A DNA stretch of 64,000 bases. Origin: Escherichia phage vB_EcoM_IME392. The notes beneath the pieces were generated by a model, which saw only the letters and a list, made by a program, of their open reading frames with translations, was not told the origin of the DNA and did not search any database. Within the stretch, counting starts at the first letter, position 1; the number at the start of each line of letters is the position of its first letter. The stretch lies in the sequence record MH719082.1, one strand, 5' to 3'. Positions 1,663-23,701 of the stretch are shown one piece after another. The translations under genes were made by a program, and so were the position numbers.

Positions 1663-1681
1663 TTAAGAATCTTTCCCACAT

Positions 1682-1713: not shown

Positions 1714-1739
1714 ACTAAAAAGGCTGGTGTAAATGTGAA

Positions 1740-3790: not shown

Positions 3791-3815
3791 GTTTAATTTC
3801 TCCGTAGGCTGTCAC

Positions 3816-3848
3816 AATTTAACAGCCTTTTAGCTCATCAAAGAAGCG
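3816..3848 (-). promoter_or_regulatory. Conserved promoter-like element (copy 2) upstream of BGT-like gene
   Basis: CAATTTAACAGCCTTTTAGCTCATCAAAGAAGCG. Overlaps the 3' end of the GT2 gene. Confidence 0.5.
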
Positions 3849-4872: not shown

Positions 4873-4878
4873 ATTTAT

Positions 4879-5490
4879 TTATCCAATTTGACGAACTAAG
4901 CGAAACCCTTCGGCGTACGGCCACTGGGCAGAATATCCACGTAAGGTGGCTAGAGCTAAGATACTCTGGGTATCTCGGTCTGACTTAATCTGGGAGTCGA
5001 ATCGTCCCATAGCCTGGCACTTACACTCAATATCGTCCTTATTCAGACGCTCGAAGTAATTAGGTTCCATCTGACCGAACTGGGTCAGGGACTCGGCATA
5101 CTCATATTCCAGGATAAGCCAGTTATACGCTCGGAGAGCTACACGAGCAGCATGATTAACTAGTTGATGGTCCTGGTGTAGGCTACTGAACGGAATATAG
5201 ACTACATCCGGCCTGATTTTAGCAACATAGTCCGCAATATCCTTAGCCAATTGCGGAATATCCTTCTGAGTCATACCATCGCCTGTGGAGGCATCGTTAC
5301 GCTCCAGGCAATGTACTTCTTTGATATTCGGATAGACACCGAATGCTGCTTCGGCTTCACCACGACGGGTCTCGTCCGGAGCAGTTACTTCGAGGATGAA
5401 AAATTGGTCGTCGCGGAATTTGCTCATAATACCTCCGCAACCCAGAATCTCATCATCGTGATGTGGGCTGATAATCAATCGTGACTTCAT
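4879..5490 (-). CDS. PIG-L/LmbE-family de-N-acetylase (GlcNAc deacetylase-like)
   Basis: Signature SPHHDDEILGCGG near the N-terminus and the second zinc-ligand motif HQDHQ. The 203-aa size is typical of MshB/BshB/LmbE proteins. Confidence 0.75.
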   Translation of the reverse strand: MKSRLIISPHHDDEILGCGGIMSKFRDDQFFILEVTAPDETRRGEAEAAFGVYPNIKEVHCLERNDASTGDGMTQKDIPQLAKDIADYVAKIRPDVVYIPFSSLHQDHQLVNHAARVALRAYNWLILEYEYAESLTQFGQMEPNYFERLNKDDIECKCQAMGRFDSQIKSDRDTQSILALATLRGYSAQWPYAEGFRLVRQIG

Positions 5491-5496
5491 TATTAA

Positions 5497-5532
5497 TCCT
5501 CGCTACACAAAAATGGGGTTAGGCCGTAGAGA
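5497..5532 (-). terminator. Hairpin + T-run (minus strand) between BCCT and PIG-L genes
   Basis: Minus strand: GGGGTTAGG-TCTCTACGG-CCTAACCCC followed by ATTTTTGTG. Confidence 0.5.
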
Positions 5533-5553
5533 CCTAACCCCGTACGCCTCTGA

Positions 5554-5588
5554 CACCTTAACAGCCTTTTAGGTCATCAAACAGGAGG
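5554..5588 (-). promoter_or_regulatory. Conserved promoter-like element (copy 3) upstream of PIG-L gene
   Basis: CACCTTAACAGCCTTTTAGGTCATCAAACAGGAGG. A hairpin/terminator follows at 5497..5532. Confidence 0.45.
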
Positions 5589-6959
5589 AGTTTCCTTAGC
5601 CAAGAATACTTTAGGTACAAAGATCTTGAGGAACCCGAATAGAATACACAATACCCCAATCAGTACCGGAACAGCCGATACAGCTACCAGAGTCTTCGTT
5701 ACAGTTACTACGTCACCACCTGCCCAGTTAAGTGCAGCAGCAACTACACCCATGCTTACAATCCAGAATACACGAGTTCTAGGAGCGGTCATGGACTCTA
5801 CCGTAATACCTGCTGAGTCATGACCTGTAATAAAGAACAGAATCACAGACACGAGGGTAATTACTGAGAATATCCATCCGCCTGGGAAATTAGCCAGAAG
5901 CTGGAAGATATCCTGAGCACCATGTTGCAAACCGGCTACACCGAATACGGTAAACCATACGTTACTGATAATGGTAGGGAACAGTACACATCCCAGGATC
6001 AGTTCGCGAATAGTACGGCCGTAAGAGATACGTGCCACAAACGCTCCGACGAATAATGCCCAACCTACCCAGGCTGCATAGTAAGCATAAGGCCAGCTAG
6101 CCAGCCATTGCTTCTCTTCAGCAGTACTGCCAATGTTTACCGACATAGGAATAATCTGGAGCAGATAGCTGCCAGAATAGGTGATGGTCTTCCAGAGGTA
6201 TTCAAAGAATGTACCACTTACAGCAACGAATGCCATAATAGATAGAGCTACGATTACATTATATCTGGATAACCACTTAACCCCACGATCGACACCAGTT
6301 ACGGCACTAAGTACAGTGCCCAGAGTCAGGAGTGCGATAATGGTGTAAGGACCAACATCCACACCAAGGAACTCTTTAAATCCAGAACTGATCGGGCCTA
6401 CTGCGTAGACGAACGACAGGGTTAAGCCTATGATGGTCGAGAAGAGTAAGCTTATCGTATTAAGGTTATTCAGAGTTCGGGACTTGAATAACTGATTAAG
6501 CGGACGGTCTTCACCACGTACATGCAGTAAGTACCCGAATGCCACCCCTACGACTGCATACACAGCCCATGCATTAAGTCCCCAGTCAAAGAAGGTAGTT
6601 ACCATATTCTGACGTTCGGACATACCCTCCTGATGATGGTACATAGGTTCGAGTACGCCATAATAAATCATGGATACACCCATACCGGTACTAAACATCA
6701 TAGAGTAATAGGTAAAGCGATTGTATTTCGGAGTACCTTTACCCAGCTTAATGTTACCATGTTTGCTGAATACAAAGAATGCCAGGAACGCCAGGAAGAT
6801 CAGCGAAGACCAGGTAAATATGAATCCATACTGAGATATAAATACAGACTTACTCCAGTCCATTACAGCACCAAACTGGGTGGGAGCAAACATAATGGCG
6901 AGTACAATACCCACCGTTACCAGCACCGTCCCCCAGGTAACTACCTTTGAATCGGACAT
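5577..6959 (-). CDS. BCCT-family (betaine/carnitine/choline) secondary transporter
   Basis: 460-aa polytopic membrane protein. N-terminal FSKHGNIKLG motif and the BCCT signature WPYAYYAAWVGWALFVGAFVARISYGRTIREL (cf. W..FYWAWW.SW.PFVG.FIARIS.GRTIRE). Confidence 0.85.
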   Translation of the reverse strand: MSDSKVVTWGTVLVTVGIVLAIMFAPTQFGAVMDWSKSVFISQYGFIFTWSSLIFLAFLAFFVFSKHGNIKLGKGTPKYNRFTYYSMMFSTGMGVSMIYYGVLEPMYHHQEGMSERQNMVTTFFDWGLNAWAVYAVVGVAFGYLLHVRGEDRPLNQLFKSRTLNNLNTISLLFSTIIGLTLSFVYAVGPISSGFKEFLGVDVGPYTIIALLTLGTVLSAVTGVDRGVKWLSRYNVIVALSIMAFVAVSGTFFEYLWKTITYSGSYLLQIIPMSVNIGSTAEEKQWLASWPYAYYAAWVGWALFVGAFVARISYGRTIRELILGCVLFPTIISNVWFTVFGVAGLQHGAQDIFQLLANFPGGWIFSVITLVSVILFFITGHDSAGITVESMTAPRTRVFWIVSMGVVAAALNWAGGDVVTVTKTLVAVSAVPVLIGVLCILFGFLKIFVPKVFLAKETPPV

Positions 6960-6962
6960 TGA

Positions 6963-7871
6963 TTATTCCTCAATTACGCCCTTAGCGATTAACTGGCGAC
7001 GGACGTATGCGTAGCCAGCAGGTGAAGTAGCGAGGACGATGTCCGCACTACGGAAGTTGGTTTCGATATAGAAGCACTCCTGAAGATCCCGAGTACAGAA
7101 GAGCTCAGTACTCATCATACCCTCGCGTACGTTACATGCATCTGCAACGAATTGCGCAACATCTTCGAAGTGGTCTACCGAATGACTATAGCCGAATCCA
7201 CGGGCATCAGTAGATATAACGTAGTTAGGGCAGTACGGAGTGAAGTCAGTATCTTCGTAGGATTTACCCTGGATAGTGAAGATATCTGCATAGTCCTTGA
7301 ACCCGCTCGGGCTAACCAGAAGATCCCAGGCAACTACCATACCATCGATAACATCTGCCTGAAGTACCAGAGAGGTAGTATATTCGTCCGGTGCCTTATC
7401 GCAGACCAAAATTGGGGAGTCTCCCAGAAGGTCCGACATAGTGCCCGCACCCTTGCCCCCGTGAACACGATCACGGCGTACAAACGCCTCCTGAGGCCTC
7501 TGGTACAGTCTGAACGACGGTACAATCAGCGAATCAGGCAGAGTTCCCAGGTTAGCTTCGGAGCGAAGGCAGGATAATTGGTCAGCTTTAGACCACGTAC
7601 TTTCGATAGCGTGCAGATCGTTACCGATTTTGGTATAGATATAGCTTTCCGGATTACGGCACTTACCCTGATTCAACTCTTCGATAACCGAGTCGAAATA
7701 AGGAAGTCGTACTGATCCCTCACGAGGAGCAGTTAACGCTACTGAGCCATGCTTGGTATGATCCTGATCAACTACCATAACCTGGTCCAGACTTACACCC
7801 ATCTTAAGAATCTGGGATAATGTAGCTGCCGTGTGATTAGTGCAGCCAATCATCAAATCTAACTTCTTCAT
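6963..7871 (-). CDS. Hypothetical protein (302 aa) of the modification module
   Basis: ORF tightly packed between the transporter and the methyltransferase, with a promoter-like element upstream. No confident family assignment. Confidence 0.45.
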   Translation of the reverse strand: MKKLDLMIGCTNHTAATLSQILKMGVSLDQVMVVDQDHTKHGSVALTAPREGSVRLPYFDSVIEELNQGKCRNPESYIYTKIGNDLHAIESTWSKADQLSCLRSEANLGTLPDSLIVPSFRLYQRPQEAFVRRDRVHGGKGAGTMSDLLGDSPILVCDKAPDEYTTSLVLQADVIDGMVVAWDLLVSPSGFKDYADIFTIQGKSYEDTDFTPYCPNYVISTDARGFGYSHSVDHFEDVAQFVADACNVREGMMSTELFCTRDLQECFYIETNFRSADIVLATSPAGYAYVRRQLIAKGVIEE

Positions 7872-7895
7872 TTTAATTCCTCAGTTAACTTGTAC

Positions 7896-7928
7896 AACCT
7901 AACAGCCTTTCGAACCCTAAAAAGAGCG
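7896..7928 (-). promoter_or_regulatory. Conserved promoter-like element (copy 4) upstream of gene 6963..7871
   Basis: ACCTAACAGCCTTTCGAACCCTAAAAAGAGCG. Confidence 0.5.
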
Positions 7929-7972
7929 AAATAATAGATATCTAGCCATCTCGTAAGATGGCTATGTATATA

Positions 7973-8713
7973 TTACTTTAATTCGGAGAGATCTGCGATC
8001 TTCACCTTAGCTGATACATCCCAGATTCCTTCACCAAATCCGGTATCTTCCAGCAGCTTAGGCACTTCACGTTTCTGTACCTTAGATTGCTCGTACTTAA
8101 GCAGAGGAATATTACCGGTCTTATCTGATTGATCCCACAGATAAGTAGCAGCACCGATGTTATCGAACAGTGCGAGATCTGGATTAAACTGGGTAAGGAG
8201 TCGGCAGTCCCAGTGAGACTTATGTTCCTCGAAAGGATTAGTTTCCGTGCCACGCTGACGATACTCATAGTTAGGAGTACCGATCACGATTTTAGCCTTA
8301 GACTGGAATAGCTTAGACAACACCATAAGCCCGTCTTCGCTATCCAGATGCTCCAACACATCCAGCCAGATAATAGTGCCGAATTTATCCAGCTCTTCAA
8401 TAGGAAGATCTTTCAACAGTTCAACGATATTGCAGATATAGATATCGCTATATACATTTACACTGCCTTTGATGTAGTCTTCGCAGATGTCCAGACCTGT
8501 AATCTGACCATCGAATCCTGCGTTACGGAGAGCAAGACCAATTTCTCCACGACCTAATCCCATATCCAGGATTGGCCCGGAGATAATTTCGTTACGGAGC
8601 ATCCATTGGAGAAAGTGCTTCTGGACTAAGTAGGAGGTGCCTCCGTTGCCCAGTGAAGCCTTCGTGACCTTAGTACCAGGAACGAAATTACACTCGATAT
8701 GTTTACCAAACAT
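7973..8713 (-). CDS. SAM-dependent methyltransferase (class I Rossmann)
   Basis: Motif I-like ILDMGLGRGEIGLAL (cf. VLDLGCGTG), and an acidic residue after beta-2 in GLDICED. Confidence 0.55.
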   Translation of the reverse strand: MFGKHIECNFVPGTKVTKASLGNGGTSYLVQKHFLQWMLRNEIISGPILDMGLGRGEIGLALRNAGFDGQITGLDICEDYIKGSVNVYSDIYICNIVELLKDLPIEELDKFGTIIWLDVLEHLDSEDGLMVLSKLFQSKAKIVIGTPNYEYRQRGTETNPFEEHKSHWDCRLLTQFNPDLALFDNIGAATYLWDQSDKTGNIPLLKYEQSKVQKREVPKLLEDTGFGEGIWDVSAKVKIADLSELK

Positions 8714-8736
8714 GTTCTGTCCTCATTAGTTTCGAC

Positions 8737-8770
8737 ACCTTAACAGCCTTTGGAGCCGTAAAAGAAGTGG
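8737..8770 (-). promoter_or_regulatory. Conserved promoter-like element (copy 5) upstream of methyltransferase gene
   Basis: CACCTTAACAGCCTTTGGAGCCGTAAAAGAAGTGG. Preceded, in the direction of transcription, by the terminator at 8781..8812. Confidence 0.5.
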
Positions 8771-8780
8771 TATTGTACAT

Positions 8781-8812
8781 ATTCAAAAATTAGGGTGGCC
8801 GAAGCCACCCTA
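8781..8812 (-). terminator. Rho-independent terminator after topoisomerase medium subunit
   Basis: Minus strand: TAGGGTGGC-UUCG-GCCACCCTA followed by ATTTTTGAAT. Confidence 0.7.
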
Positions 8813-8817
8813 GTTAG

Positions 8818-10065
8818 TTACAGTTTACCGATCATCTTCTGAATCATCTCGTCAGAAGTCTGATTCTCTACCTTAGCACGACGTTCTTGCAGATTAGCAA
8901 TGCGGTCGTCGTGATCTTTCTTACGTAGCATGCTGATGCTACGGCTAAGGCAGGAATTCAACACTTCCTGGGTAATACCGAGAGCTTTGATGATCTGAGC
9001 ATCAGACTTATCCTGCATAACCAGCTCGCCCACTTTAGGAAGAATCTGGTAAATCTCGATGTCTCGGTCAATCTTCTTAAGAGACTCAGTCTTATGGACG
9101 GAGAATGCCTGATTGTAGAGAGCCATCGTGACTGCAATCCAGTCGCGAATACCCATCGTCACCAGTTGACCATTGTAGGCTACCTGGATACGATGCGAGC
9201 GGTTCATGTAAGCAATATTCATGCATGCTTCGTGAACCTCGTCCATATCGATGGTCCTGATACGGGGAGCCTTCATTACTCGGATATAGATCTTATCCTT
9301 GGACATGTTCTTGACCAGGATCTTACCTTCTGATAACCACTTATTCAGGAACCCGATGCGAGGAGTAATTACCTCACCAGACCCGATGATGTCGATGGTG
9401 TCGGTATTGACGCGAGTTACCTTAAGGGTAAGGCCTAAGCGACCTACACCAGTTTCCCATAAGGACTTAAGGTCTGACTTACTCGGCACGATATCATACC
9501 CGTACTGAGCCTTAAGCAGATTATAATCGTCATGCTTGTAGGCTTCCAGCAGACTCTCGTAAGTGAATGCTGGGATACGGGACTGAATACCAGTAGCCCA
9601 TGAGAAGGTACCATACATCAGAGCATACGGAATAGGCACTGGAAGGTATGCGTATTCCATCTTCTCTTCACCTTCAACCTGCGGAACATAGTCCGCTAGA
9701 CCGAAGTAGTATTCTGCACGATCTTCGTTCAGGCCAACCTTCGTGTAACGAGGAGCAGCACCAGGAACTTCTTCCAGCAACTTAACGCCGAAAGATCCCT
9801 GACCATCAATAGCACCGATGCGAGCAAGACGGGAAATAGTCCCATCGATAGACTGGTCACCGAATGGGTGTAGCGACTGAGTTTCTGAGATAGCGCTCAG
9901 AGTCCCCACCAGCTTCCCACGAGCAATGCTATTCAGAGCCATGTAGATACGGCGCTGGGCAGGAATCAGGCCATCGATACCGGGAACTACACGATGAAGA
10001 GCACAATACACACTGTAGTCAGTGTAGTTCTTGGTGATGAATTCAGAAATCTTTACCTGTTCCAT
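8818..10065 (-). CDS. Type II DNA topoisomerase medium subunit (T4 gp52-like, GyrA-type cleavage domain)
   Basis: 415 aa, immediately downstream of the large subunit. The size and position match the T4 gene 39/52 arrangement. Confidence 0.65.
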   Translation of the reverse strand: MEQVKISEFITKNYTDYSVYCALHRVVPGIDGLIPAQRRIYMALNSIARGKLVGTLSAISETQSLHPFGDQSIDGTISRLARIGAIDGQGSFGVKLLEEVPGAAPRYTKVGLNEDRAEYYFGLADYVPQVEGEEKMEYAYLPVPIPYALMYGTFSWATGIQSRIPAFTYESLLEAYKHDDYNLLKAQYGYDIVPSKSDLKSLWETGVGRLGLTLKVTRVNTDTIDIIGSGEVITPRIGFLNKWLSEGKILVKNMSKDKIYIRVMKAPRIRTIDMDEVHEACMNIAYMNRSHRIQVAYNGQLVTMGIRDWIAVTMALYNQAFSVHKTESLKKIDRDIEIYQILPKVGELVMQDKSDAQIIKALGITQEVLNSCLSRSISMLRKKDHDDRIANLQERRAKVENQTSDEMIQKMIGKL

Positions 10066-10067
10066 AA

Positions 10068-12053
10068 TTACTCCTTAAACAGACCGTAGTCTTCTAACAG
10101 TTGGCGACGAGCACGAGATGAGTACAGCAACTTACGAGCGGCATCGAGATGCTCTTCATTATCATCGTAGGTTACCTGGATAAGACGGCGAGATTTCGAG
10201 TTAATGATGAATTGCTCAGTTTCTTCTTCGGTATATGACCCGAGTCCCTTACGACGTTCAACATAGCACTTATCGAAGTCGATCTTATCCTTCTCGTCAG
10301 CGTAGTAGAACTCGGTCTTCTTACCATTCTTAACTACATAGAACGGAGCTTCGAGTTTATACAGACGACCATCTTTAACCAGCTCTGGAGCATGGATAAG
10401 GAAGATTGAGCTAATGAGGTTACTGATGTGCTGACCATCAACATCAAGGTCGGTCATAATGATGATCTTACCGTAACGAGCCTTATCTATGTCAAACATC
10501 TGGCCCATACCACACCCGATAGTATTGATGATCGCCAGCAGCTCTGGGTTATTCACGAATTCCATGATATCCATGGAAGCCGAGTTACGCATCTTACCGC
10601 GAAGAGGAAGCACCGACTGATACTCATTACGCAACTTGATGATATTACCAGAAGCAGACGGACCCTCTGTGATGAACAGCTCACGAAGATCCCAGCGGTC
10701 GGACGGAGATTCGTAGATCTTCGCCATGTCACCATCCATAGCGGCCTTACGGTGATCATCACCCATCACCAGCTTAGACTTAATGAAGTCCATGTTGGAG
10801 AGTTTATTCAGGCTAGCTTTGTAAGCCAGGATCTTGGCAATCAGAGCATCAAAGAATTGCTTATTCTTCTCGTATACCAGGCTGAAGTAGAATGTGAGCT
10901 GACTCAGGCATTCTTTCTCGTAGAAGAAGTACTCGCCATAATAGTCGTAATCGTTGATTTGCTCATCATTCAGCATCAACTTATTCTTAGCCATGATTTC
11001 CCAGTCGCTCCAGGACATACCGAGGCCAGTTAACTTCTCCTTAGTCTGCGAGGAGAATGCTGTACGATAGCTGGAGAAGACGTTAGTGAACACGATCAAT
11101 CCCAGCTTAGCATCACCAACAGTGATAGCAGAGTTAACTTTATTCAGCATACCGCCGAGCGCTCTCGTGACCAGCTTCTCATGCAGACCACCATGCGGGT
11201 TATTGATCAAGTTGATCATGTCTACATGGGAGTAGGACATATTCTTATCAGAGTAGCCCAACTCACCAGAGAAGGTCAGACGATCGTTGAACGAGAACTC
11301 GTACTTGACTGTAGTATCGAGGAACAGCTTCTCATTCTCTGCAACATCACGACGAAAATCCCAGGTAGCCAGAGCTTCACCATTAACGGTGATAGTTGCA
11401 TCACGACCAATCAGGGAGATCTTCAGAGGAACAGTATCCACATCAGACCAGATGCTGCGGTACAGAGTCGCATCAGGCACCATGAAGACTGCTGTGGAGA
11501 AGTCGGTAGCCTTTAACGTCTCGAGCACTTCGTCTGGGAAGCCATCGTCGTGAAGATCATTCAGATCATTGATCACTCCATCGATTTCCATAACACCACG
11601 GCGGAATCCGAGGACATAGAACTGACCTGGCTCCATAGGGATGTGTGCCTTATCTCCCTGCATTACGCGACGGATTACAACGAATCGCTCGGACACTGCG
11701 TTAACAGCGGAGCTACCTACGCCATGGGTACCAGAGGTAATTTCACGGTTATCGCCCAGCTTAGAGCCAGCATGCAGATCTGTTACAGTAGAGAACAGAA
11801 TAGATTTAGACGGATCTTCCGGATCAGCGTAGATAGGAATACCACGTCCGTTATCGGTAACCAACTTGTAGGCTTCACGGTTAATGATCTGCACTAGGTT
11901 AGCATAACCATTAAGCAGCTCGTCCTCCGCATTATTGATTATTTCCTGGAGAGGATGAGTGTAGTTAATCGGGTCACCGAGATACATGGATACGTTCTGA
12001 CGAACGTTATCAGGGTAACGCAATCTTGTGATTTCAATAGCATGTTCTGACAT
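10068..12053 (-). CDS. Type II DNA topoisomerase large subunit (T4 gp39-like, GyrB-type ATPase + TOPRIM)
   Basis: GHKL ATPase motifs EIINNAEDE, DNGRGIP and GTHGVG. TOPRIM IIMTDLDVDGQHI. Confidence 0.85.
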   Translation of the reverse strand: MSEHAIEITRLRYPDNVRQNVSMYLGDPINYTHPLQEIINNAEDELLNGYANLVQIINREAYKLVTDNGRGIPIYADPEDPSKSILFSTVTDLHAGSKLGDNREITSGTHGVGSSAVNAVSERFVVIRRVMQGDKAHIPMEPGQFYVLGFRRGVMEIDGVINDLNDLHDDGFPDEVLETLKATDFSTAVFMVPDATLYRSIWSDVDTVPLKISLIGRDATITVNGEALATWDFRRDVAENEKLFLDTTVKYEFSFNDRLTFSGELGYSDKNMSYSHVDMINLINNPHGGLHEKLVTRALGGMLNKVNSAITVGDAKLGLIVFTNVFSSYRTAFSSQTKEKLTGLGMSWSDWEIMAKNKLMLNDEQINDYDYYGEYFFYEKECLSQLTFYFSLVYEKNKQFFDALIAKILAYKASLNKLSNMDFIKSKLVMGDDHRKAAMDGDMAKIYESPSDRWDLRELFITEGPSASGNIIKLRNEYQSVLPLRGKMRNSASMDIMEFVNNPELLAIINTIGCGMGQMFDIDKARYGKIIIMTDLDVDGQHISNLISSIFLIHAPELVKDGRLYKLEAPFYVVKNGKKTEFYYADEKDKIDFDKCYVERRKGLGSYTEEETEQFIINSKSRRLIQVTYDDNEEHLDAARKLLYSSRARRQLLEDYGLFKE

Positions 12054-12085
12054 AATTTCTCCGGTCAGGTTTAAATAAGCTCACA

Positions 12086-12120
12086 CAGTTTAACAGCCTT
12101 TGGAGGCCTCAAAGGAGCGG
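12086..12120 (-). promoter_or_regulatory. Conserved promoter-like element (copy 6) upstream of topoisomerase large subunit
   Basis: CAGTTTAACAGCCTTTGGAGGCCTCAAAGGAGCGG. Confidence 0.5.
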
Positions 12121-12752
12121 TTCACGAACAGGACTAAATCCTCTACTCTGGACTTATCTACCCACTCTGTTCTTCCTGGTAAGGACCTATTAGACTCGGA
12201 GAAGAAAGATAATCTCACTTTTGATTCTAAATCCACTCCCTCTTCTTTAGGCATCTCGATTAAGATTAGCGGGGTCATACCGATGCCTAATCCATCTAAT
12301 CTTCTTTCTATATTTGAAGTAATCCCATATTTAGCATTTCCAGATTGGTCCAATACGATATAAAAGACCACCTTACCTTCTGGAATGGTAGATATCGCTA
12401 GGTTCTTAATCACAGAGTTAGCGTATTCAGGATTCAACCATCGTTTATGATTTGAAGAGGATATCACTTTAGACATCTTCTTCTGGTAGTTCTCATCTTC
12501 CCACATTTTAATGTTGCGATTAGTCATGGAAACAGACCTAGCCCTGGTGGCGCATTCTGATCTTCCACATGTAGGACGATAGCCCTTAATCACGGATTTA
12601 AAGGAGCAGGGTTTTCCACATGAACATATTTTTACAGGAAAGAATTTTAAGTAATATTCATGCGGAGTTAAGCCATGAGATTTGGCATGGGAGGGAAATG
12701 CCTGGCCTCTTACTTCGGCAGAGCATATTCTACATTTATGATTCATAATCAT
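12090..12752 (-). CDS. Zn-finger / GIY-YIG-like endonuclease (homing-endonuclease-like)
   Basis: Several CxxC pairs at the N-terminus. The C-terminal VVFYIVLDQSGNAKYGITSNIERR fits GIY-(x9-11)-YIG...R. It sits directly upstream of the topoisomerase genes, a known homing-endonuclease hotspot in T4-like phages. Confidence 0.4.
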   Translation of the reverse strand: MIMNHKCRICSAEVRGQAFPSHAKSHGLTPHEYYLKFFPVKICSCGKPCSFKSVIKGYRPTCGRSECATRARSVSMTNRNIKMWEDENYQKKMSKVISSSNHKRWLNPEYANSVIKNLAISTIPEGKVVFYIVLDQSGNAKYGITSNIERRLDGLGIGMTPLILIEMPKEEGVDLESKVRLSFFSESNRSLPGRTEWVDKSRVEDLVLFVNRSFEASKGC

Positions 12753-12990
12753 ACCACTTAGTTAATTCAAGGAAGTCATCCATCGCGGAATTAAAGAAGG
12801 AGTCTATCTCCTTAGCCATTTCCTTGGCGAAGCGACCAGATTCGGTCGACATCACTACCTTAGCCTCGCCCATAGGGTGCTTGACCACTTCGTAGATTCC
12901 CAGATTTGGGTAATACACTATGCTGGATAGGAAGTTTACAGACTTAACCACCACAGTATTGAATTGAGTTACTTCCACCATCTTAATCAT
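12736..12990 (-). CDS. Hypothetical small protein
   Basis: 84-aa ORF in an operon-like array. No recognisable motifs. Confidence 0.35.
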   Translation of the reverse strand: MIKMVEVTQFNTVVVKSVNFLSSIVYYPNLGIYEVVKHPMGEAKVVMSTESGRFAKEMAKEIDSFFNSAMDDFLELTKWYDYES

Positions 12991-13301
12991 GCTTCACCTA
13001 CCATTTTCAGGAAGGTGTCTACCATAATCGGGTCGAAGCTATCGACATCGGCAGTATGCATCAGGGCGGAGAATAATGAGTTAGCCCAGTGCTCCGTAAC
13101 TCCGTCTTTACCTTCGAGAATTACGCAGTACTGATCTTTGGAAGGATGGTACTGAATCTTAGCAACATTGCGATTCGAGGTCAGGACCAAAATCTTGGTT
13201 CCCGAGATAGTGAAGATTCTAGACATATAATAATCCCAAATTAGAAGATCCGCAGCGGGAACGCCCCGCCACCCAAAAGAACGGGCTTTAGGAGGTCCCA
13301 T
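12987..13301 (-). CDS. Hypothetical small protein (true start may be internal)
   Basis: ORF follows a terminator hairpin. Start codon uncertain. Confidence 0.35.
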   Translation of the reverse strand: MGPPKARSFGWRGVPAADLLIWDYYMSRIFTISGTKILVLTSNRNVAKIQYHPSKDQYCVILEGKDGVTEHWANSLFSALMHTADVDSFDPIMVDTFLKMVGEA

Positions 13302-13342
13302 AAATCGTTTTATTTTTCATTATTTGAAAAATAAAATAATCT

Positions 13343-13368
13343 ACACAAAAATGGGGTCCGAAGACCCC
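13343..13368 (-). terminator. Rho-independent terminator after Mre11-Rad50 gene
   Basis: Minus strand: GGGGTC-UUCG-GACCCC followed by ATTTTTGTGTAG. Confidence 0.65.
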
Positions 13369-13373
13369 ATCAA

Positions 13374-16139
13374 CTACTCTTCCATAAACGTAGTTACGTT
13401 ATTGGAAAGGTAGGCACCAATTTTAGTGTTATATCTCTGGAAGGTAGGAACATGGGTAACCAGGATGATGTGGTTAACCGGAATGTCCTGAAGAGCATCA
13501 ATAGCTACGTCCAGAGTATTTACGTCCAGATTTCGCAGAGACTCATCCAGAATCAGACATCCTGCTCCCTTACTGAGGCTAATCAGCTTACCGATGAACA
13601 GTACGTCCACCAGGTTCTGTTGGCCACCAGACAGATCAGCATACGGAATTAACAGATCTCCAACTTTGTATTGAACATCGAAGTCAATCTTGATAGCTCC
13701 GTTAGCCTGTTCACGAACAGTAGAAATTACCATATCTCCACCAGTCATCATAGCAGCTACTTCTTTGAAGATAGAAGCAGTTACATCGCCGCTATTAGTG
13801 AACAGGCTCTGATACTCAACCAGTTTCTGATACTTAGGCTGGAGAATAGCCAACTGCGCATTAGCATCGTCGAGTTTCTTCTGAGCCTCGTCCATACGAG
13901 TCTTCAGACTACGAAGAGTAGCCATAGCGCCGATGGTAGAGTTGATCTCGATTAGCTCCTGCTCCAGCTTAGCCACTTCCTCTTCGAGAACCTGCACGGA
14001 AGGATAGGACTTAGTCTTACTCTTAAGCACTTCCACGTCGCTATTAACGGTATGGATCTTCTGACGAAGAGTAGCCACATCGTTCAGCAGACCGGACTTA
14101 CGTCTTAGTTCGGCTAATTCACTATTCTTAACGTTAAGCTTCTCTCTGAGTTCATCAGACTTAGGAGCCTTACTGATCTCAGCCTCGACAGCATCCAGCT
14201 TAGTAACAGATGCAGATCCTTGGGTTTCGAGATCATCCATCTTAGCTCTGATAGACTTCTCTACTTCTTTAATGTCCTCTTCCTTAAGGGACTGCTTACA
14301 GGTTGGGCACGTAGTAGGGATGTTGCGCATCTCGGTCTCGAGCTTAGTTAACTCCTTCTCTAAGCGAGTTAACTCATTAGTCAGAGATTCACTCTGATTA
14401 TGCAGTGACCGGATGTTACCTTCTACTTCAGATACCTCGGCATCCAGAGTAGTGATTTCGTCCCGGACCTTAGCGAGAGCGGAGTTAACCTCCTCTTCGT
14501 TAAAGTCAATCTTGAACGCAGCCAGAGAATCTTCCAGCATCTGGAGACTCTGTAGCTTACTGTCCAGATTACCCAGCTCACGGATCTTCTGACGAATATC
14601 ATCAATCTGTGGCAGGATTCGAGACTTATCTTCTTCCAGATTACTCACGTCCTTAAGTTTGGAGAAGTCGTGATCCTCCATGGTCTTAAGGACTTCTTCC
14701 TGAGCAGTTACCTGGGTCTGATAGTTACTGATCTCTACCTTACAGTTCTTAGCCGAGGCCTTTGCGACAGCTTCGTACTGGTTAATTACGGTAAGACCGA
14801 GCATCTTCGTGATCAGGTTAATACGTTCGTTGAATCCGAACTGGCTCAAGAACGGAGGACTATTCTGGGAACGATACAGAAGATCGAAGTGTTCGAGGAA
14901 TGGCAACATCTCCCAGAGCTTAGCTTCACGCTCTCGGATACTACCACCATCCATCTCATCACCATCAATCCAGACTCGGAAAGTCTGACCACCAGCCCAA
15001 TGGCGACTGATCAGGAATTCACGACCACCATACTCTAGCATCACTTCTACCAGAAGATGGTCTTGACCGCGTCTCACCACGTTACGAGGACTGTCGCTAC
15101 CAGTTAAGCAGTAGTTAAGAGCTCTCAGCAACGAGGATTTACCGTTACCAGTTTCGCCGTAGAGATAAGTAAGACCTCGCTTAAAGTTAAGCTCCAGCTT
15201 ATCAATACTGCGGAAGTTCTCTACCTTAATACTATTCAAGGTAAAGTTAAGGTCGAAGACCGACTCGGAACGATCAACGTGGGTAGACATCTCATCATGG
15301 ATATCTTTAAGACCCTTTGCCCGAACGACTTTGTCGATTACTTCTTCAACATCGATAGATTTAACTGAGATGCGTGAAGCATCCATCATCTGAGCTCTTT
15401 CACGAACTACCAGATGAGGGTAATTATCCATACCGGCAGGTACTTCATCTTCCCAGTACATCTTGAGGTATTTGTAGGAGTCAGACTCTACCGGAACCCG
15501 CTGCCAGGAAAGATCTTTAAGATCCAGCAGCACCAAGCTACCGTCCTGACAGTCACCCATCCCGTGAGGAATAGGTACGTTAACCGAGTGGGTATGACCG
15601 ATGCTGATAGGACGATGGATGTCACCAGCAAATCCCAGCTCATACTTAGTATCGTCGAACTCCTGACCAAACATAGAGGACAGAGTAATGTGGCCAATAA
15701 GGACATCTACTTTATCTTCGATAAAACTGAAGTCCTGGGTAGGACGCCAGTCGCTAAAGGCGACCTTACGGCCACCTAAGTTCAGGATTTTACCATCGAC
15801 ATATTCTGCCTTACCAGCGAGGATCGGCACCAGTGAGTTCTGGTAGTGATCAGCATCTACTGATTTGGAGTTAATGTCGTGGTTACCCAGAATATAATAA
15901 ATCTCGGTAAACTGCTCACCGAGGATCTCCATAAACTGGGATGTAGCGTGTGCAATTTTAGGCTCATGCTGAGCCTTATGCACTAAGTCGCCAGCGATAG
16001 ACAGACAGGTTACTTTATGTTCCCTGCCCATCTCCGCCATACGATGAGCTAAACCGATAAACTGCTTTAAGCGAAACCCTTCCGAGTTATGCTGCTGAAA
16101 TTCATGGATATGAATATCAGCTACGATCAACATTTTCAT
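13374..16139 (-). CDS. Fused Mre11/SbcD nuclease - Rad50/SbcC ATPase (T4 gp47+gp46 equivalents in one polypeptide)
   Basis: N-terminal phosphoesterase motifs DIHIH, GDLVH, GNHD, GHIT, GDIHRP and GHTH. From about aa 300 onward: Walker A GETGNGKSS, long coiled coils, zinc-hook CPTC, signature LSGGQQN and Walker B LILDE. Confidence 0.75.
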   Translation of the reverse strand: MKMLIVADIHIHEFQQHNSEGFRLKQFIGLAHRMAEMGREHKVTCLSIAGDLVHKAQHEPKIAHATSQFMEILGEQFTEIYYILGNHDINSKSVDADHYQNSLVPILAGKAEYVDGKILNLGGRKVAFSDWRPTQDFSFIEDKVDVLIGHITLSSMFGQEFDDTKYELGFAGDIHRPISIGHTHSVNVPIPHGMGDCQDGSLVLLDLKDLSWQRVPVESDSYKYLKMYWEDEVPAGMDNYPHLVVRERAQMMDASRISVKSIDVEEVIDKVVRAKGLKDIHDEMSTHVDRSESVFDLNFTLNSIKVENFRSIDKLELNFKRGLTYLYGETGNGKSSLLRALNYCLTGSDSPRNVVRRGQDHLLVEVMLEYGGREFLISRHWAGGQTFRVWIDGDEMDGGSIREREAKLWEMLPFLEHFDLLYRSQNSPPFLSQFGFNERINLITKMLGLTVINQYEAVAKASAKNCKVEISNYQTQVTAQEEVLKTMEDHDFSKLKDVSNLEEDKSRILPQIDDIRQKIRELGNLDSKLQSLQMLEDSLAAFKIDFNEEEVNSALAKVRDEITTLDAEVSEVEGNIRSLHNQSESLTNELTRLEKELTKLETEMRNIPTTCPTCKQSLKEEDIKEVEKSIRAKMDDLETQGSASVTKLDAVEAEISKAPKSDELREKLNVKNSELAELRRKSGLLNDVATLRQKIHTVNSDVEVLKSKTKSYPSVQVLEEEVAKLEQELIEINSTIGAMATLRSLKTRMDEAQKKLDDANAQLAILQPKYQKLVEYQSLFTNSGDVTASIFKEVAAMMTGGDMVISTVREQANGAIKIDFDVQYKVGDLLIPYADLSGGQQNLVDVLFIGKLISLSKGAGCLILDESLRNLDVNTLDVAIDALQDIPVNHIILVTHVPTFQRYNTKIGAYLSNNVTTFMEE

Positions 16140-16993
16140 GCCGACTCCAGTATCTTAGCCGTAACGGATCTGTTATATTTACCCAGTACACCATGGAAGT
16201 ACGGAGGGAATCTGAATCCTGGACAGAACTCTTCCAGAGTAGGTAGGATGCGCTGTTGCATCTGTACCTTAGACTCCTGTTCTTTAATGATGCTGTGGAC
16301 TTCTGTATCGGTTAGGATTCTGTCTAGACGCATCAGTTCCATATTAGAACGAATACGGAATTCAACCGATTGGCTTAAGCTACCATCTTTGTAGGCATTA
16401 ATCGCCTCCTTAACAGTGCTTAATCCAGTAGCCACTCCTGGAATGTTGTCGGAGCCGTCCCCGACGATGGCTTTGTAGATGAGATAATCCTTATGATCGT
16501 CCAGATCGTAGGTCTTCATTAACCAAGGAAGATCCACTAAACCATCGTCAGGATTTAAGACACAAGTATTCTCATTAATTGATAAGTACCAGTCACGGTC
16601 ACGAGAATGCAACATAACCGGACGTCCTGAATGAGCATAGTAGTAGCCTAAATCATCGGCTTCCACACCAGACACCTGGATACACTTAATACCCAATGCT
16701 GGGAAGATCTGCTCATGAAGTACATTCATAGCAGCCCACAATGCCTCAAAGCTCTCGTCATACTCACGATTAGCTTTATACTCCGGATTCTTATCTTTAG
16801 GCCTGTATCTCCACTTGCCTCGATCATATAGCATGATTAGCTCGGAGTTATATCCGTCTTCCTTAATCAACTTCGCTACACTACCAATAGTGGAGGAGAC
16901 CGTAGGACCTAAGTCCTGGGACTTACCGGCTGCGAACCAGTTACGAAGAGTCAGCCACTGACAATCGACTGGTATTAACGGGATGTCATTCAT
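16136..16993 (-). CDS. RNase H / 5'-3' flap endonuclease (T4 rnh / FEN family)
   Basis: Motifs YKANR and GVEADDLGYYY (cf. Pol I 5' nuclease GYEADD). Confidence 0.7.
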   Translation of the reverse strand: MNDIPLIPVDCQWLTLRNWFAAGKSQDLGPTVSSTIGSVAKLIKEDGYNSELIMLYDRGKWRYRPKDKNPEYKANREYDESFEALWAAMNVLHEQIFPALGIKCIQVSGVEADDLGYYYAHSGRPVMLHSRDRDWYLSINENTCVLNPDDGLVDLPWLMKTYDLDDHKDYLIYKAIVGDGSDNIPGVATGLSTVKEAINAYKDGSLSQSVEFRIRSNMELMRLDRILTDTEVHSIIKEQESKVQMQQRILPTLEEFCPGFRFPPYFHGVLGKYNRSVTAKILESA

Positions 16994-17007
16994 AGTCTAC
17001 CTAGAGC

Positions 17008-17036
17008 GTCAAAAATAAAGGGACCGAAGTCCCTTT
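17008..17036 (-). terminator. Rho-independent terminator after SSB-like gene
   Basis: Minus strand: AAAGGGAC-UUCG-GTCCCTTT followed by ATTTTTGACG. Confidence 0.7.
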
Positions 17037-17045
17037 ATTAGTTAA

Positions 17046-18056
17046 TTAATTTTTACGGAACTTGGCGAAACGGGAAGCTGCACCACCTTCTTCCTGACCT
17101 TCGTCAGACTTATCTTCGCCGGCATCTTCGACTTTATCTTCAGACTTCTCTTCGGACTTAGTTTCAGATTTATCTTCACCAGCTTCGTCAGACTTAGCCT
17201 GATCTTCGGTAGGCTCGGACTTAGCGTCAGACTTAGTATCTTCAACTTTATCGTCTGATTTAGCTTCTTCAGCCTTAGCCTCTTCCTCAGCTTTGAGCTC
17301 TTCGAAGCCATCTTCACCAACTAACGGCAGACCCTTAGCCTTACGCTGGGAGCGAATTTCGTCCAGATCTTTACGGACACGCTTAACCAGACCTACGTAC
17401 TTATCTTTATCGAAACCTTCACGAATATAAGCCTGAGACAGAGGCTGGTAAGTCTGATCCACAACTACCGGATCAGCTTTGCTGAACAGCGGAGTGAAAG
17501 TTACAGATCCCTGGTTACCACGTACCACGGTAATTTTAACCGGAGATCCTTTGACGTCTTTATCCAGCATACCTTCCAGAACTTCTGGAGAGTCTTCCGC
17601 CAGCGCCGTAATGAAGTCGGTCAGTGCGTTAGCCACTTTACCGTTACCGATCACCGCATACAGAGTATTCGGCTTCCAGTTATCAGACGGAGTGTCGGTT
17701 TTCTGCAGGAAGAAGTAGAACAGGATGTTGTACTTCAGACCGTATTTCCAGTGATTGTACTCATTCAGCTCTTCGAGCATGTCATCCAGCTCGGCATAGT
17801 TGAAGTTCTCAGGAAGATCTTCACAGTCAGACGGAGTCTGAATACCATAACTGAAGTAACCGTGAGTACGGACTTCGCGATACAGGTTACCGACAGGGTC
17901 AGTGATGATACGACCCTGATGGCTACCTTCTGGTAAGAACGTAGCATTTGGGAAGTTACCGGTACCGCCGGACTTCTCTTTACGTTCTTTCATTTTACCT
18001 GCGAGGGCTTTGATACCGGCTACGTCTAACTTCTTAACTTGAGTTTGTTCAGTCAT
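17046..18056 (-). CDS. Putative ssDNA-binding protein with an acidic C-terminal tail
   Basis: C-terminal about 70 aa are extremely D/E/K/S rich (EEAKAEEAKSDDKVED...). Position next to RNase H and replication genes. No clear gp32 Zn motif. Confidence 0.4.
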   Translation of the reverse strand: MTEQTQVKKLDVAGIKALAGKMKERKEKSGGTGNFPNATFLPEGSHQGRIITDPVGNLYREVRTHGYFSYGIQTPSDCEDLPENFNYAELDDMLEELNEYNHWKYGLKYNILFYFFLQKTDTPSDNWKPNTLYAVIGNGKVANALTDFITALAEDSPEVLEGMLDKDVKGSPVKITVVRGNQGSVTFTPLFSKADPVVVDQTYQPLSQAYIREGFDKDKYVGLVKRVRKDLDEIRSQRKAKGLPLVGEDGFEELKAEEEAKAEEAKSDDKVEDTKSDAKSEPTEDQAKSDEAGEDKSETKSEEKSEDKVEDAGEDKSDEGQEEGGAASRFAKFRKN

Positions 18057-18103
18057 CTTTGTGATCTCTATTTAAACAATGTTTCAACAATCATAATCAG
18101 AGT

Positions 18104-18140
18104 TGCCCTCTGACACCTTAACAGCCTTTCGACCCTCCAA
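18104..18140 (-). promoter_or_regulatory. Conserved promoter-like element (copy 7) upstream of SSB-like gene
   Basis: CACCTTAACAGCCTTTCGACCCTCCAAAAGAGCGGCG. Confidence 0.5.
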
Positions 18141-18152
18141 AAGAGCGGCGGA

Positions 18153-19193
18153 CTACACTTTACGCAATCGATCTATCATTTTAGCACGATGCTGCTCTTC
18201 TGTATTGATGATCGAGTACATACGAACCAACACTGACGGATCATTATCCACTCTGTTAGCCAACTTATCCAGAGCTCCTAAGTAGATACTGGTTTCTTCC
18301 TTGATTACCTTACGGACTGAGTCAGCGAAGGTAAATCCAATACTGTCTGGGTCGAACGTAATACCGTCCAGCATCACAGCCAGCATGACATTATCCTGGA
18401 AGATATCTGACTTAATGGAATCCAGCACGCTATTCTTGCGCACTGCTTCCAATATAGAAACTACCTTAGATACCTTCGGGAACCCTTTCCGGCCATTTAG
18501 TAATTCCAGGAAGGTAAAGAACTTGCCTATGTCTTTGATAGATGTGAGCAGCAGAAACAGTTCCGGATGGTGCTCTGCTAGGATCGACAGAAACATCATC
18601 TTCTCTGTATTCGTCTTAGGAATCAGATCCTGTATCGCTTTAATATCTACGTCGGTCACGATTGCTCCCATGTGTTCGAGTATGCGAGTCACGATGATCC
18701 TGTCTGTAAGATCAAGATGCTCGACCATAACCACTCCCCAGTCTAAATATAGCTGGATGATAGGTTTAAATCGTTTAGGGAGGAACTGATTCCAAAGATT
18801 AACATAGCGATGGACAGCTACCTCCTGTCGCACGCTGTAACTATTGCCTAACTCCAGAGCCTTGTAAAAATCTGAGTTCTCGGCTAATTCGGGTTCTAAC
18901 ATGTCGATCGATACTTGCTTTACTTCTTTCTTAATTATCGATTCTAGATGATCCCGAGTAACTTCTTCTGTAGTAGTTAACAGCATGTAGGTCAGGCTGG
19001 TTACTGCAGAAGATAATGCCTCTTCGGTCTGTCCTCTGAATTTATAATAAGTACACACCCGTCGGACGATCGCCAGGGATAGGGTGAATAGGGTACGAGA
19101 ATCCCTCTTCACTGAATTAATTTCCCTATTCACCAGTTCCACTAGCTTATCGACGGTAGCGTTCTCGAGGATCTCTACCATCTCTTTTATCAT
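18153..19193 (-). CDS. Hypothetical protein (346 aa)
   Basis: ORF with a promoter-like element downstream of its stop. Family unknown. Confidence 0.45.
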   Translation of the reverse strand: MIKEMVEILENATVDKLVELVNREINSVKRDSRTLFTLSLAIVRRVCTYYKFRGQTEEALSSAVTSLTYMLLTTTEEVTRDHLESIIKKEVKQVSIDMLEPELAENSDFYKALELGNSYSVRQEVAVHRYVNLWNQFLPKRFKPIIQLYLDWGVVMVEHLDLTDRIIVTRILEHMGAIVTDVDIKAIQDLIPKTNTEKMMFLSILAEHHPELFLLLTSIKDIGKFFTFLELLNGRKGFPKVSKVVSILEAVRKNSVLDSIKSDIFQDNVMLAVMLDGITFDPDSIGFTFADSVRKVIKEETSIYLGALDKLANRVDNDPSVLVRMYSIINTEEQHRAKMIDRLRKV

Positions 19194-19417
19194 TTAAATA
19201 TCTTCCTTAAGCCAGCATCTGGATCTCCTTCGTCAACCAGATCTTGCTTCATGCTAACAGCATCATTGATAGATATTTTGAACTCCTCGTCTGTTACACG
19301 AGTTATAGTTCCGTACTTACTTTCTATGGAATTACCTGGGCTGATGGAACTAAGCACCATGAATACCATAGCTTCGTTGGGCAGGGTACCTACGATATCG
19401 GACAGCTTTACACTCAT
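19190..19417 (-). CDS. Hypothetical small protein
   Basis: 75-aa ORF, translationally coupled to its neighbours. Confidence 0.35.
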   Translation of the reverse strand: MSVKLSDIVGTLPNEAMVFMVLSSISPGNSIESKYGTITRVTDEEFKISINDAVSMKQDLVDEGDPDAGLRKIFK

Positions 19418-19420
19418 ATA

Positions 19421-19870
19421 TTACCCCATACTTGATAAAGAGATAGACTTTTCGTCTAGTTCGCATACCTCCATGATTAAAATCAGGTATTCGTAATTAT
19501 CTTTATCGTTTATTAGTTTATCCATATTTAAGGTGATGGTGAACCGATCATCTATGCTAATAGCTTCCTTGACAGCATCTTCCACTGCTTTAATTAGGTT
19601 AGATACGTCACGAGTCCAGAATGACTGGCTAAACGAGAATATCATCCTAATATTCAGCATCACAGGCTTACCTTTATATACCAGGAAGTCTTCACGAGCT
19701 CCTTGCATATCTAGGGAGGATTTAACCCACTCTTTAAAGTCCTTGATGCTGGGGTCGAGATAGACCCATGATCTTCCTCCACGAGCCCTCCCGACTTTAT
19801 ACATCTCGTTTACGGAGGGGAAGTTCCCTCCGTATTGCAGCAGGTAGTTATGAGTTCCTAATACTTCCAT
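19421..19870 (-). CDS. Possible RusA-like Holliday-junction resolvase
   Basis: Weak resemblance: DVSNLIKAVEDAV resembles the RusA D.DN..K...DAL segment. Size is 149 aa. Confidence 0.3.
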   Translation of the reverse strand: MEVLGTHNYLLQYGGNFPSVNEMYKVGRARGGRSWVYLDPSIKDFKEWVKSSLDMQGAREDFLVYKGKPVMLNIRMIFSFSQSFWTRDVSNLIKAVEDAVKEAISIDDRFTITLNMDKLINDKDNYEYLILIMEVCELDEKSISLSSMG

Positions 19871-21129
19871 TAGTTCCTCCGGCCACCTCTGCCACCATAA
19901 GTCTGCATACGTGAGTATACATCACGACCGATCTGCTCGATTTCACCATGAGATCGCATAATCCATGGAGAACTAACTCCATCTTTACCACGACGGCATT
20001 TAGCTACTTTCAAGATCCCGCAGTGTTTCTCACTACGAGGACTCAGACCTACGGTTATCATCATATCCACGTTCTGCTGTTTACGAGCAGACTCACCAGC
20101 CGAGTCGATATTCAGTTCTTCCTCGCCCCAGTATTGAATCTTAGGCTGGGAAGCAACGAATACCAGACGAGCAGGTTCGTAGATAGGTTTAGCAATAGAT
20201 GTAAGTATGTCATAGATATGACCACCATCATCATACATGCTACCAGTTTCAGGACGCTTAAGGTTAGAGTCATAGTCGACTACCAGACAGTCATAGCGTT
20301 TCTTACCGCGGCAACTATCCAGATACTCTTCCAAATCTTCAGCACCTAAGCTACGAGACGGAACCGTAATCAGATCGATATAGTTCAGGATCTCACGAAC
20401 GTCGTCGGTGAGATGTTTATTAAGTTCGGCAACTACCTTGGCATAAGGAGTACCGGTGATCACTGCCGTAGCACGAGATAGGAAGTCATAGCGAGTTAAG
20501 TCTCCAAGAGCTACCCATAACGTGCGGCGACCCTGTGTAGCAAATCCGAGGACTTCCTGTAGCATGATAGCAGACTTACCACCACCAGGACGACCTACGA
20601 ACTGAATTACCTGACCAGGAATATAGCCATTGAATACTGATGCTTCAGTAACCACATCCAGAGTAGACTGGAATACGCCATCTAAACCACCGATGTCATG
20701 CTCCATTACAGTATCTACATCCAGACCACCCAGAGTATGTACCGGAATAGTTGAAGTAAGACTACGAGGAATCTCGCGAATCATATCAATCAACATTCCG
20801 GTATCTTCGGAGTTAGCCTTCATGATCTCGGTCAGTTTACGTTCCTGATAGAACTTGAAGAAGTTATTTACAATCTTCTCTATTTCTTTAGGATCCGTAA
20901 CCAGACGGAAGTTTTCAGCTAACTCCACAAAGTTAGATATGTCCTCGGCAGGACATATTTCACCAAGTATCGAATGAATTACAGCTGGGGTAGCATCCGG
21001 TAACTTAATACCGGACTCCACGAGGGCTCTTGCAATCTCAGTAGACCAGGGAAGATCATTAATAGTGAGTCCCATAGACTCTTTGATCTTAGGGTTAAAC
21101 AAACTTGCTACGTGTGTGATCTCTGACAT
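19870..21129 (-). CDS. DnaB-family replicative helicase (gp41-like)
   Basis: C-terminal RecA-like core with Walker A GRPGGGKS, ITGTP, and a Walker B-like LVVDYDSNL. Confidence 0.5.
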   Translation of the reverse strand: MSEITHVASLFNPKIKESMGLTINDLPWSTEIARALVESGIKLPDATPAVIHSILGEICPAEDISNFVELAENFRLVTDPKEIEKIVNNFFKFYQERKLTEIMKANSEDTGMLIDMIREIPRSLTSTIPVHTLGGLDVDTVMEHDIGGLDGVFQSTLDVVTEASVFNGYIPGQVIQFVGRPGGGKSAIMLQEVLGFATQGRRTLWVALGDLTRYDFLSRATAVITGTPYAKVVAELNKHLTDDVREILNYIDLITVPSRSLGAEDLEEYLDSCRGKKRYDCLVVDYDSNLKRPETGSMYDDGGHIYDILTSIAKPIYEPARLVFVASQPKIQYWGEEELNIDSAGESARKQQNVDMMITVGLSPRSEKHCGILKVAKCRRGKDGVSSPWIMRSHGEIEQIGRDVYSRMQTYGGRGGRRN

Positions 21130-21138
21130 TTCTATGTC

Positions 21139-22779: not shown

Positions 22780-22781
22780 AA

Positions 22782-23300: not shown

Positions 23301-23321
23301 TGTATTCTCCTCACGTGCCAC

Positions 23322-23696: not shown

Positions 23697-23701
23697 AGGT
23701 A

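Follow-up and report, generated by a model that had tools for sequence, protein, structure and literature searches.

A putative T5orf172-type homing endonuclease gene inserted upstream of the topoisomerase II genes of Escherichia phage vB_EcoM_IME392

The T5orf172 proteins are a subfamily of the GIY-YIG nucleases, and homing endonuclease genes (HEGs) of this type are abundant in ICP1, in T5-like phages and in other phages; zinc-finger DNA-binding domains are common among them, and they cluster beside essential genes (Barth et al. 2023, PMC10448857). A biochemically characterised member is Odn (gp88) of ICP1 (Barth et al. 2021, PMC8263062), in which the substitution E180A abolishes cleavage in vivo and in vitro, and of which E180 is equated by the authors with E75 of I-TevI (PMC8263062). 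The present analysis concerns a gene at positions 12090..12752, on the minus strand, of a 64,000-nucleotide stretch of Escherichia phage vB_EcoM_IME392 (sequence record MH719082.1; the whole stretch is called the window, and coordinates refer to it unless stated otherwise). This gene is probably a free-standing gene of homing-endonuclease type, belonging to the T5orf172 branch and inserted upstream of the topoisomerase II (topo II) operon in the IME392 lineage. In common with the T5orf172 HEGs (PF10544, GIY-YIG clan) it encodes a putative DNA-binding domain at one terminus and a predicted nuclease domain at the other, with the C-terminal core Y ... K-x-G ... R ... E ... E-W, and it is free-standing beside essential replication genes and variable between close relatives. 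It differs from them in that its product has diverged beyond the reach of the Pfam model and in that the putative DNA-binding module consists of a C2H2 finger, a C4 zinc site and W-x-x-P-E-Y helices. The sequence represents a new, very divergent group within the T5orf172 homing-endonuclease class already described, and the current understanding of homing endonucleases is left unchanged by it.

In the open reading frame (ORF) listing of the window the gene runs from an ATG at 12752 to 12090, stop codon included, and encodes 220 residues. The GenBank version uses the second ATG, at 12746, and is annotated as a hypothetical protein of 218 residues (P0001, 100% identity, on a contig of 116,460 bp); it is the sole close database match to the ORF. 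The gene and the parts of its product are as follows.

12090..12752, minus strand: zinc-finger / T5orf172 nuclease gene, a complete ORF of 220 residues plus stop; the start may alternatively be at 12746 (annotated, 218 residues)
12675..12734, minus strand: C2H2 zinc finger, residues 7-26 (C7-x2-C10-x11-H22-x3-H26), ROS/MucR-like or zf-C2H2 in relatives
12552..12626, minus strand: second zinc site, residues 43-67 (C43-x-C45 ... C62-x4-C67)
12399..12515, minus strand: helical region, residues 80-118, with two W-x-(D/N)-(P/E)-(E/N)-Y repeats (MWEDENY and RWLNPEY)
12099..12374, minus strand: T5orf172-type nuclease domain of GIY-YIG fold, residues 127-218, assigned from homology, motif and predicted fold

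The placement of the C-terminal domain in the T5orf172 subfamily of the GIY-YIG superfamily is supported by transitive sequence homology, motif conservation and predicted fold, three lines of evidence that agree and on which the nuclease assignment rests. The protein itself does not reach the Pfam gathering threshold for T5orf172 (PF10544), which is 20 bits; a Pfam search with it gives no match to PF10544, PF13455 or PF01541 even at E<=10, and only DUF6033 appears, below threshold. Two full-length relatives, P0028 and P0072, do exceed the PF10544 threshold (41.2 and 27 bits, respectively), and both also match MUG113. The C-terminal 99 residues of the IME392 protein alone align with the T5orf172 domain of P0028 (residues 151-241) at E=6e-7, and the homologue from Vibrio phage 150E35-1 matches T5orf172 at E=0.012. 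Nine residues are invariant in 13 full-length homologues (C45, G57, C67, Y131, K141, G143, R151, E176 and E196). The core residues of the nuclease domain, Y131, K141, G143, R151, E176 and E196, are all retained, those equivalent to the catalytic Arg and Glu among them. In the domain alignment the Tyr, K-V-G, Arg, E180 and E202 of Odn fall on Y131, K141/G143, R151, E176 and E196. The 'LE..lH' motif of P0028 and P0072 has an Arg in the IME392 protein in place of the His.

The predicted fold points in the same direction. Strands are predicted at residues 127-134, 140-145 and 160-168, and helices at 148-154, 169-183 and 200-218. The AlphaFold model computed from the 13-sequence alignment has a pLDDT (predicted local distance difference test) of 86.3 and contains a C-terminal β-β-α-β-α-α domain with the GIY-YIG α/β fold, including a three-stranded sheet; from the single sequence the pLDDT is 37.8. 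A Foldseek search of viral predicted structures (BFVD) returns the protein itself, followed by many proteins labelled "T5 Orf172 domain" (Campylobacter phage CP21, E=3.6e-7), and further by a CapR-homology protein, a treble-clef zinc-finger protein and a protein of Escherichia phage Mt1B1_P17. Against the PDB nothing significant is found with Foldseek, the match of highest probability being the GIY-YIG protein 1zg2 (E=0.35); superoxide dismutases among the PDB matches are spurious and reflect helical-hairpin similarity. Neither the protein (phmmer) nor the profile of its C-terminal domain matches any PDB sequence.

A reading of the window from its letters and ORFs, hereafter the sequence-only reading, had proposed a GIY-YIG-like endonuclease on the strength of a FYIV/GNAKYGIT/ERR string. 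This string is present over residues 130-151 (VVFYIV at 128-133, GNAKYGIT at 138-145, ERR at 149-151), and the domain does fall within the GIY-YIG superfamily; it belongs, however, to the T5orf172 branch, with K-x-G in place of Y-I-G, and not to the canonical PF01541 type. That profile searches might recover no nuclease fold, which would have spoken against the proposal, is not what was found, the fold being of the GIY-YIG superfamily and T5orf172 subfamily. The domain order, nuclease last, had been described as inverted relative to I-TevI and the Seg proteins. This is correct as far as I-TevI and T4 SegA-G (PF01541) are concerned, in which the nuclease is N-terminal, whereas the IME392 nuclease is C-terminal, has K-Y-G and does not match PF01541; for T5orf172 nucleases the order is not unusual. 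ICP1 Odn has the same one, DNA-binding part N-terminal and T5orf172 domain C-terminal, and a similar size (226 versus 220 residues). The N-terminus of Odn is a satellite-captured RepA_N domain and the enzyme an anti-satellite weapon that cuts PLE origins, whereas the IME392 protein has a zinc-finger module and its gene bears a different genomic signature, namely insertion at a conserved phage locus. A canonical Seg-type GIY-YIG enzyme is rejected, given the missing PF01541 match, the C-terminal position of the domain and the replacement of the second Tyr of GIY-YIG by K141. A reading as an HNH or Mob-type enzyme is likewise rejected.

The insertion is evident from a comparison with EP_H11, the closest sequenced phage, which is collinear with window positions 3..52096 at 93-96% identity. 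The sole gene-sized gap in this collinear stretch lies at 12124..12760. Four informative metagenomic contigs (L012, L013, L014 and L017) were found by searching with the topoisomerase protein, and the following features emerge from the comparison of occupied and empty sites.

12124..12750, minus strand: inserted segment of 627 bp, in place of 9 bp, AGTCTTCCA, of the empty site (EP_H11, L012, L013)
12054..12123, minus strand: ancestral sequence 3' of the insertion, comprising the last 10 nuclease residues and stop, a spacer and the topo II ribosome-binding site, and holding the motif AAAGGCTGTTAAACTGT
12757..12768, minus strand: IME392-specific cluster of 6 substitutions in 12 nt by the upstream junction, GAATTAACTAAG versus GAGCTAACAGGC in EP_H11, L012 and L013

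The insert is flanked by TGGTAT on one side and by GAACCGCTCC on the other, and the empty sites of L012 and L013 are exactly that of EP_H11. The composition of the insert is foreign: its G+C content of 39.7%, compared with a window mean of 45.3% (standard deviation 2.5%), lies in the bottom 1% of 627-bp windows. An ancestral upstream ORF of 87 residues has lost its last seven codons through the insertion, so that its end changes from ...GWYSLPEPLL to ...KWYDYES (84 residues); the intact C-terminus (GWY..EPLL) is common to EP_H11, L012, L013 and L014. At the other end, the last 10 codons and the stop codon of the nuclease ORF lie in ancestral sequence beyond the insert, the stop codon falling inside a conserved motif between the small ORF and topo II. 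This motif, AAAGGCTGTTAAACTGT / AAAGGCTGT(T/C)AAC(C/T)TGT (12054..12110, minus strand), is kept down to 57% topo II identity and possibly has a regulatory role or serves as a recognition site.

In five loci a small ORF of 82-87 residues is directly followed by the topo II large-subunit gene, with no HEG in between; the topo II identity of these loci is 98-99% for EP_H11, L012 and L013, 76% for L014 and 57% for L017. The order SbcC / small ORF / topo II is also found, again with the nuclease gene absent, in Acinetobacter phage Ab1-TPeters (47.5% topo II identity). The sequence-only reading had asked for a comparison with orthologous loci, and in it the gene turns out not to be universal: the 627-bp insertion is missing from all relatives recovered, and IME392 alone carries the gene. 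No second lineage with the element at this site was found, nor any further site that holds it. Taken together, the aligned loci support a precise insertion of the gene in the IME392 lineage, at the 3' end of the small ORF. The adjacent cluster of six substitutions, of which three are synonymous and by which one codon is changed from G to K, has a binomial p of ~3e-4 at 5% background divergence in a test chosen post hoc; it is a candidate for a short co-conversion tract from a donor or for an altered target site. No longer co-conversion tract is seen beyond these 12 nt in the sliding divergence between IME392 and EP_H11.

The N-terminal part is rich in Cys and His over its first 67 residues (C7, C10, H22, H26, C43, C45, C49, C62 and C67), in agreement with the cysteine-rich N-terminus of the sequence-only reading. 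An exhaustive HMMER scan of 1.84 billion representatives yields 118 relatives at E<=1e-3, roughly a dozen of which match the protein over its full length; the remainder, which is most of them, have only residues ~6-110 in common with it. Each of H22, C43, C45, C62 and C67 shows 90% conservation or more across the 118 relatives, and the cysteines of the C2H2 finger are missing in some family members. The second zinc site is probably of the zinc-ribbon or treble-clef type. The tandem W-x-(D/N)-(P/E)-(E/N)-Y repeat recurs in P0010, in the part that binds DNA; P0010 is the product of a canonical HEG and combines a GIY-YIG domain at its N-terminus with an I-HmuI NUMOD-like one. No relation between the C-terminal domain profile and this single canonical GIY-YIG protein was detected with hhalign. 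The zinc module does not match DUF723 or any other named DNA-binding-domain model in Pfam, and has only the structural BFVD match to the CapR-homology protein.

Elsewhere the zinc module is fused to TnsA-like, MTES_1575, DUF559 (Vsr-like), Phage_endo_I, T5orf172/MUG113 and GIY-YIG domains, and is thereby linked to many nuclease domains other than that of IME392. Since the shuffling of a targeting module among unrelated nuclease domains is a hallmark of homing endonucleases, the architecture is of HEG type. The commonest partner is DUF7487 (PF24308), present in 42 of the 118 relatives (P0004 and P0015 included), which by guilt by association is a candidate nuclease or effector domain. The same module is seen in Stenotrophomonas phage Marzo (MZ326868; L003 2929..3540), where an unannotated ORF of 203 residues, with a baseplate wedge gene on one side and a gp4-like gene on the other, has the C2H2 and C-x-C...C zinc module and no recognisable nuclease domain.

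The protein matches PHROG 8130, a family of unknown function, and gives no match in NCBIfam or PADLOC. A word-indexed protein search returns the protein alone, or five proteins when the family alignment is used. Apart from itself, no homologue above 35% identity was found anywhere, and the nearest ones lie in unrelated contigs. No paralogue is present in the window and no close copy in IMG/VR, and scans of IMG/VR and the JGI metagenomes with the nuclease, the upstream small ORF and the topo II N-terminus gave no match. A chance ORF is rejected in view of the 118 relatives, the annotation in the phage record and the confident fold from the 13-sequence alignment. A likely function can now be assigned to this orphan hypothetical protein, which profile libraries had overlooked.

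Genomic hallmarks of a HEG are found at the locus: presence and absence with precise junctions, a modular protein and an adjoining conserved essential gene. The neighbourhoods of homologues, beside RNA polymerase and DNA polymerase genes, are typical of HEGs as well. In Vibrio phage 150E35-1 (L002 3986..4738, OX241562) a homologue of 250 residues and the same architecture is encoded between two genes annotated as RNA polymerase β'-like subunits, and may be a HEG at a split RNA polymerase gene; the L007 homologue directly follows a DNA polymerase A gene. The immediate surroundings of the IME392 gene are the following.

10068..12053, minus strand: topo II large subunit, 661 residues, with Toprim and GyrB domains; the conserved essential gene adjoining the insertion
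8818..10065, minus strand: GyrA/ParC-like subunit, 415 residues, directly after the large-subunit gene
12736..12990, minus strand: upstream ORF of 84 residues, whose stop codon overlaps the start region of the nuclease gene

The genes for the 661-residue and 415-residue proteins together encode a two-subunit phage topoisomerase II. The large-subunit gene begins 36 nt downstream of the nuclease ORF on the same strand, which bears out the proposed insertion directly upstream of the topo II genes. On the 5' side of the nuclease gene lie two small ORFs (84 and 104 residues), the gene of a fused SbcD-SbcC-like protein (921 residues) and a 5'-3' exonuclease gene. The only strong terminator, at 13371..13350, follows the sbcCD-like gene, and the transcription unit of the nuclease gene starts past it. 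A promoter/terminator scan revealed no promoter or terminator belonging to the nuclease gene itself. Because it lacks these, shares a transcription unit and has a start that overlaps the upstream stop codon, the nuclease gene is probably co-expressed with the topoisomerase operon; it is probably also translationally coupled to the upstream ORF.

MobA of T4 belongs to the HNH enzymes, and in T4 the large-subunit gene of topo II is split by the mobA cassette. The mobA/gene 60 region of T4-like phages had been invoked in the sequence-only reading as a classical hotspot to which this insertion would belong. What the two have in common is a free-standing endonuclease gene adjoining phage topo II genes; in IME392 the nuclease is of the T5orf172 type and the insertion lies upstream of an intact large-subunit gene. 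No T4-like phage occurs among the 30 matches listed or in the organism tally: IME392 is unrelated to the T4-like phages and has EP_H11 and a few contigs from metagenomes as its near relatives. With a phage that is not T4-like and a topo II made up of a GyrB-like and a GyrA-like protein from two genes, the parallel is no more than an analogy.

As a homing-type gene, the IME392 gene would operate as follows. The N-terminal module (C2H2 finger, C4 zinc site and two W-x-x-P-E-Y helices) would bind a specific sequence in or near the empty allele, and the T5orf172 domain would cut nearby by means of R151 and of E176, which would bind the metal. If a related phage without the gene infected the same cell, its empty allele would be cut and then mended with the IME392 copy as template, so that the gene, together with part of its flanks, would pass to the recipient and spread. 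IME392 itself would be immune, its own site being disrupted by the insertion and the adjacent substitutions. Homing of this kind may still take place at present. IME392 on the one hand and EP_H11 with three metagenomic relatives on the other provide a clean pair of occupied and empty sites in a rare coliphage lineage, a defined allele pair usable for testing T5orf172 homing, possibly on hypermodified DNA.

A nuclease that arrived as a mobile element may also have been kept for a benefit to the phage, such as the cutting of competing phages, satellites or host DNA, or marker exclusion. T5orf172 nucleases with swapped DNA-binding domains act against satellites in ICP1 and E. coli phages, and one of the BFVD matches is from Escherichia phage Mt1B1_P17, whose T5orf172 protein is discussed in PMC10448857; the intact catalytic residues and the embedding of the gene in an operon, with probable translational coupling, would be compatible with such a role. 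However, the DNA-binding module is the generic zinc module of many HEG-like proteins and not a satellite-captured one of RepA_N type, the position of the gene, next to an essential gene and at a site that is conserved elsewhere and disrupted here, is in keeping with homing, and PADLOC does not recognise the protein. A domesticated or weaponised nuclease is for these reasons considered unlikely.

Still less probable is a decayed or non-catalytic remnant that retains sequence-specific DNA binding only, for instance as a repressor of the topo II operon in the manner of I-TevI autorepression or of CapR, or that has no function at all. Consistent with this are the divergence beyond Pfam recognition, the Arg that replaces the 'LE..lH' His of P0028 and P0072, and the end of the gene within the conserved intergenic motif upstream of topo II; CapR (10.1101/2020.11.28.402263) is a precedent for a domesticated HEG-derived regulator. 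Decay is nevertheless difficult to reconcile with the retention of all six family-invariant residues of the nuclease domain, with a full-length ORF free of frameshifts and with the confident model of that domain. Deletion of an ancestral gene from EP_H11 and the other relatives is very improbable: only presence and absence are observed and the direction follows from parsimony, but five loci at 57-99% topo II identity are without the gene, four of them (EP_H11, L012, L013 and L014) have the intact small-ORF C-terminus that the insertion interrupts, the segment is atypically low in G+C, and the nearest homologues, at <=35% identity, are in unrelated contigs.

IME392 is one of the phages with a YerA41-like DNA polymerase in which genes for thymidine hypermodification were looked for, and its phage group is suspected to be thymidine-hypermodified (PMC12686479). 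If IME392 DNA is indeed so modified, the nuclease would have to recognise and cut hypermodified DNA. A wider, and doubtful, proposal combines this with the preferred homing-type reading: the N-terminal cassette would be an unnamed, widely shuffled HEG targeting module joined to at least six nuclease folds, the nuclease would cut hypermodified DNA at the conserved motif upstream of topo II, and the site, at which metagenomic contigs break, might be a recurrent insertion hotspot. If this were true, one would expect DUF7487 to act as another nuclease or effector domain.

Several other differences and features were observed in and around the locus. Five of six metagenomic contigs with topo II relatives (L013, L014, L015, L016 and L017) end 59-607 nt upstream of the topo II gene, and the ends of L015 (1..60) and L016 (1..61), from two samples, fall within ~10 nt of the equivalent of the IME392 insertion site; such contig ends may reflect insertion polymorphism that breaks assemblies. 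A second small indel distinguishes 13246..13252 from L001 5128..5338, where EP_H11 has ~205 bp more, with an annotated ORF of 48 residues. This extra segment lies just upstream of the 79/104-residue ORF, and the contigs L013 and L014 start at about that point. The 921-residue protein encoded at 13374..16139 (minus strand) contains a calcineurin-like phosphoesterase (SbcD/Mre11-like, residues 1-185), AAA_23/SMC_N and a Rad50 zinc-hook-like region (SbcC/Rad50-like), and looks like a fused SbcCD; its gene is also present in L012. Positions 4879..6959 (minus strand) encode a homologue of BCCT-family (BetT-like) transporters (460 residues) and a PIG-L-like protein of 203 residues.

Genes for tRNA-Met (26105..26180) and tRNA-Arg (26650..26725) are located on the minus strand; around them, 26431..26930 is the one further part of the collinear block in which divergence from EP_H11 is strong. 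The region 52097..62614 (~10.5 kb) has no counterpart in EP_H11 at the DNA level; it is probably a swapped host-range module, since collinearity ends where EP_H11 encodes its tail-fibre region.
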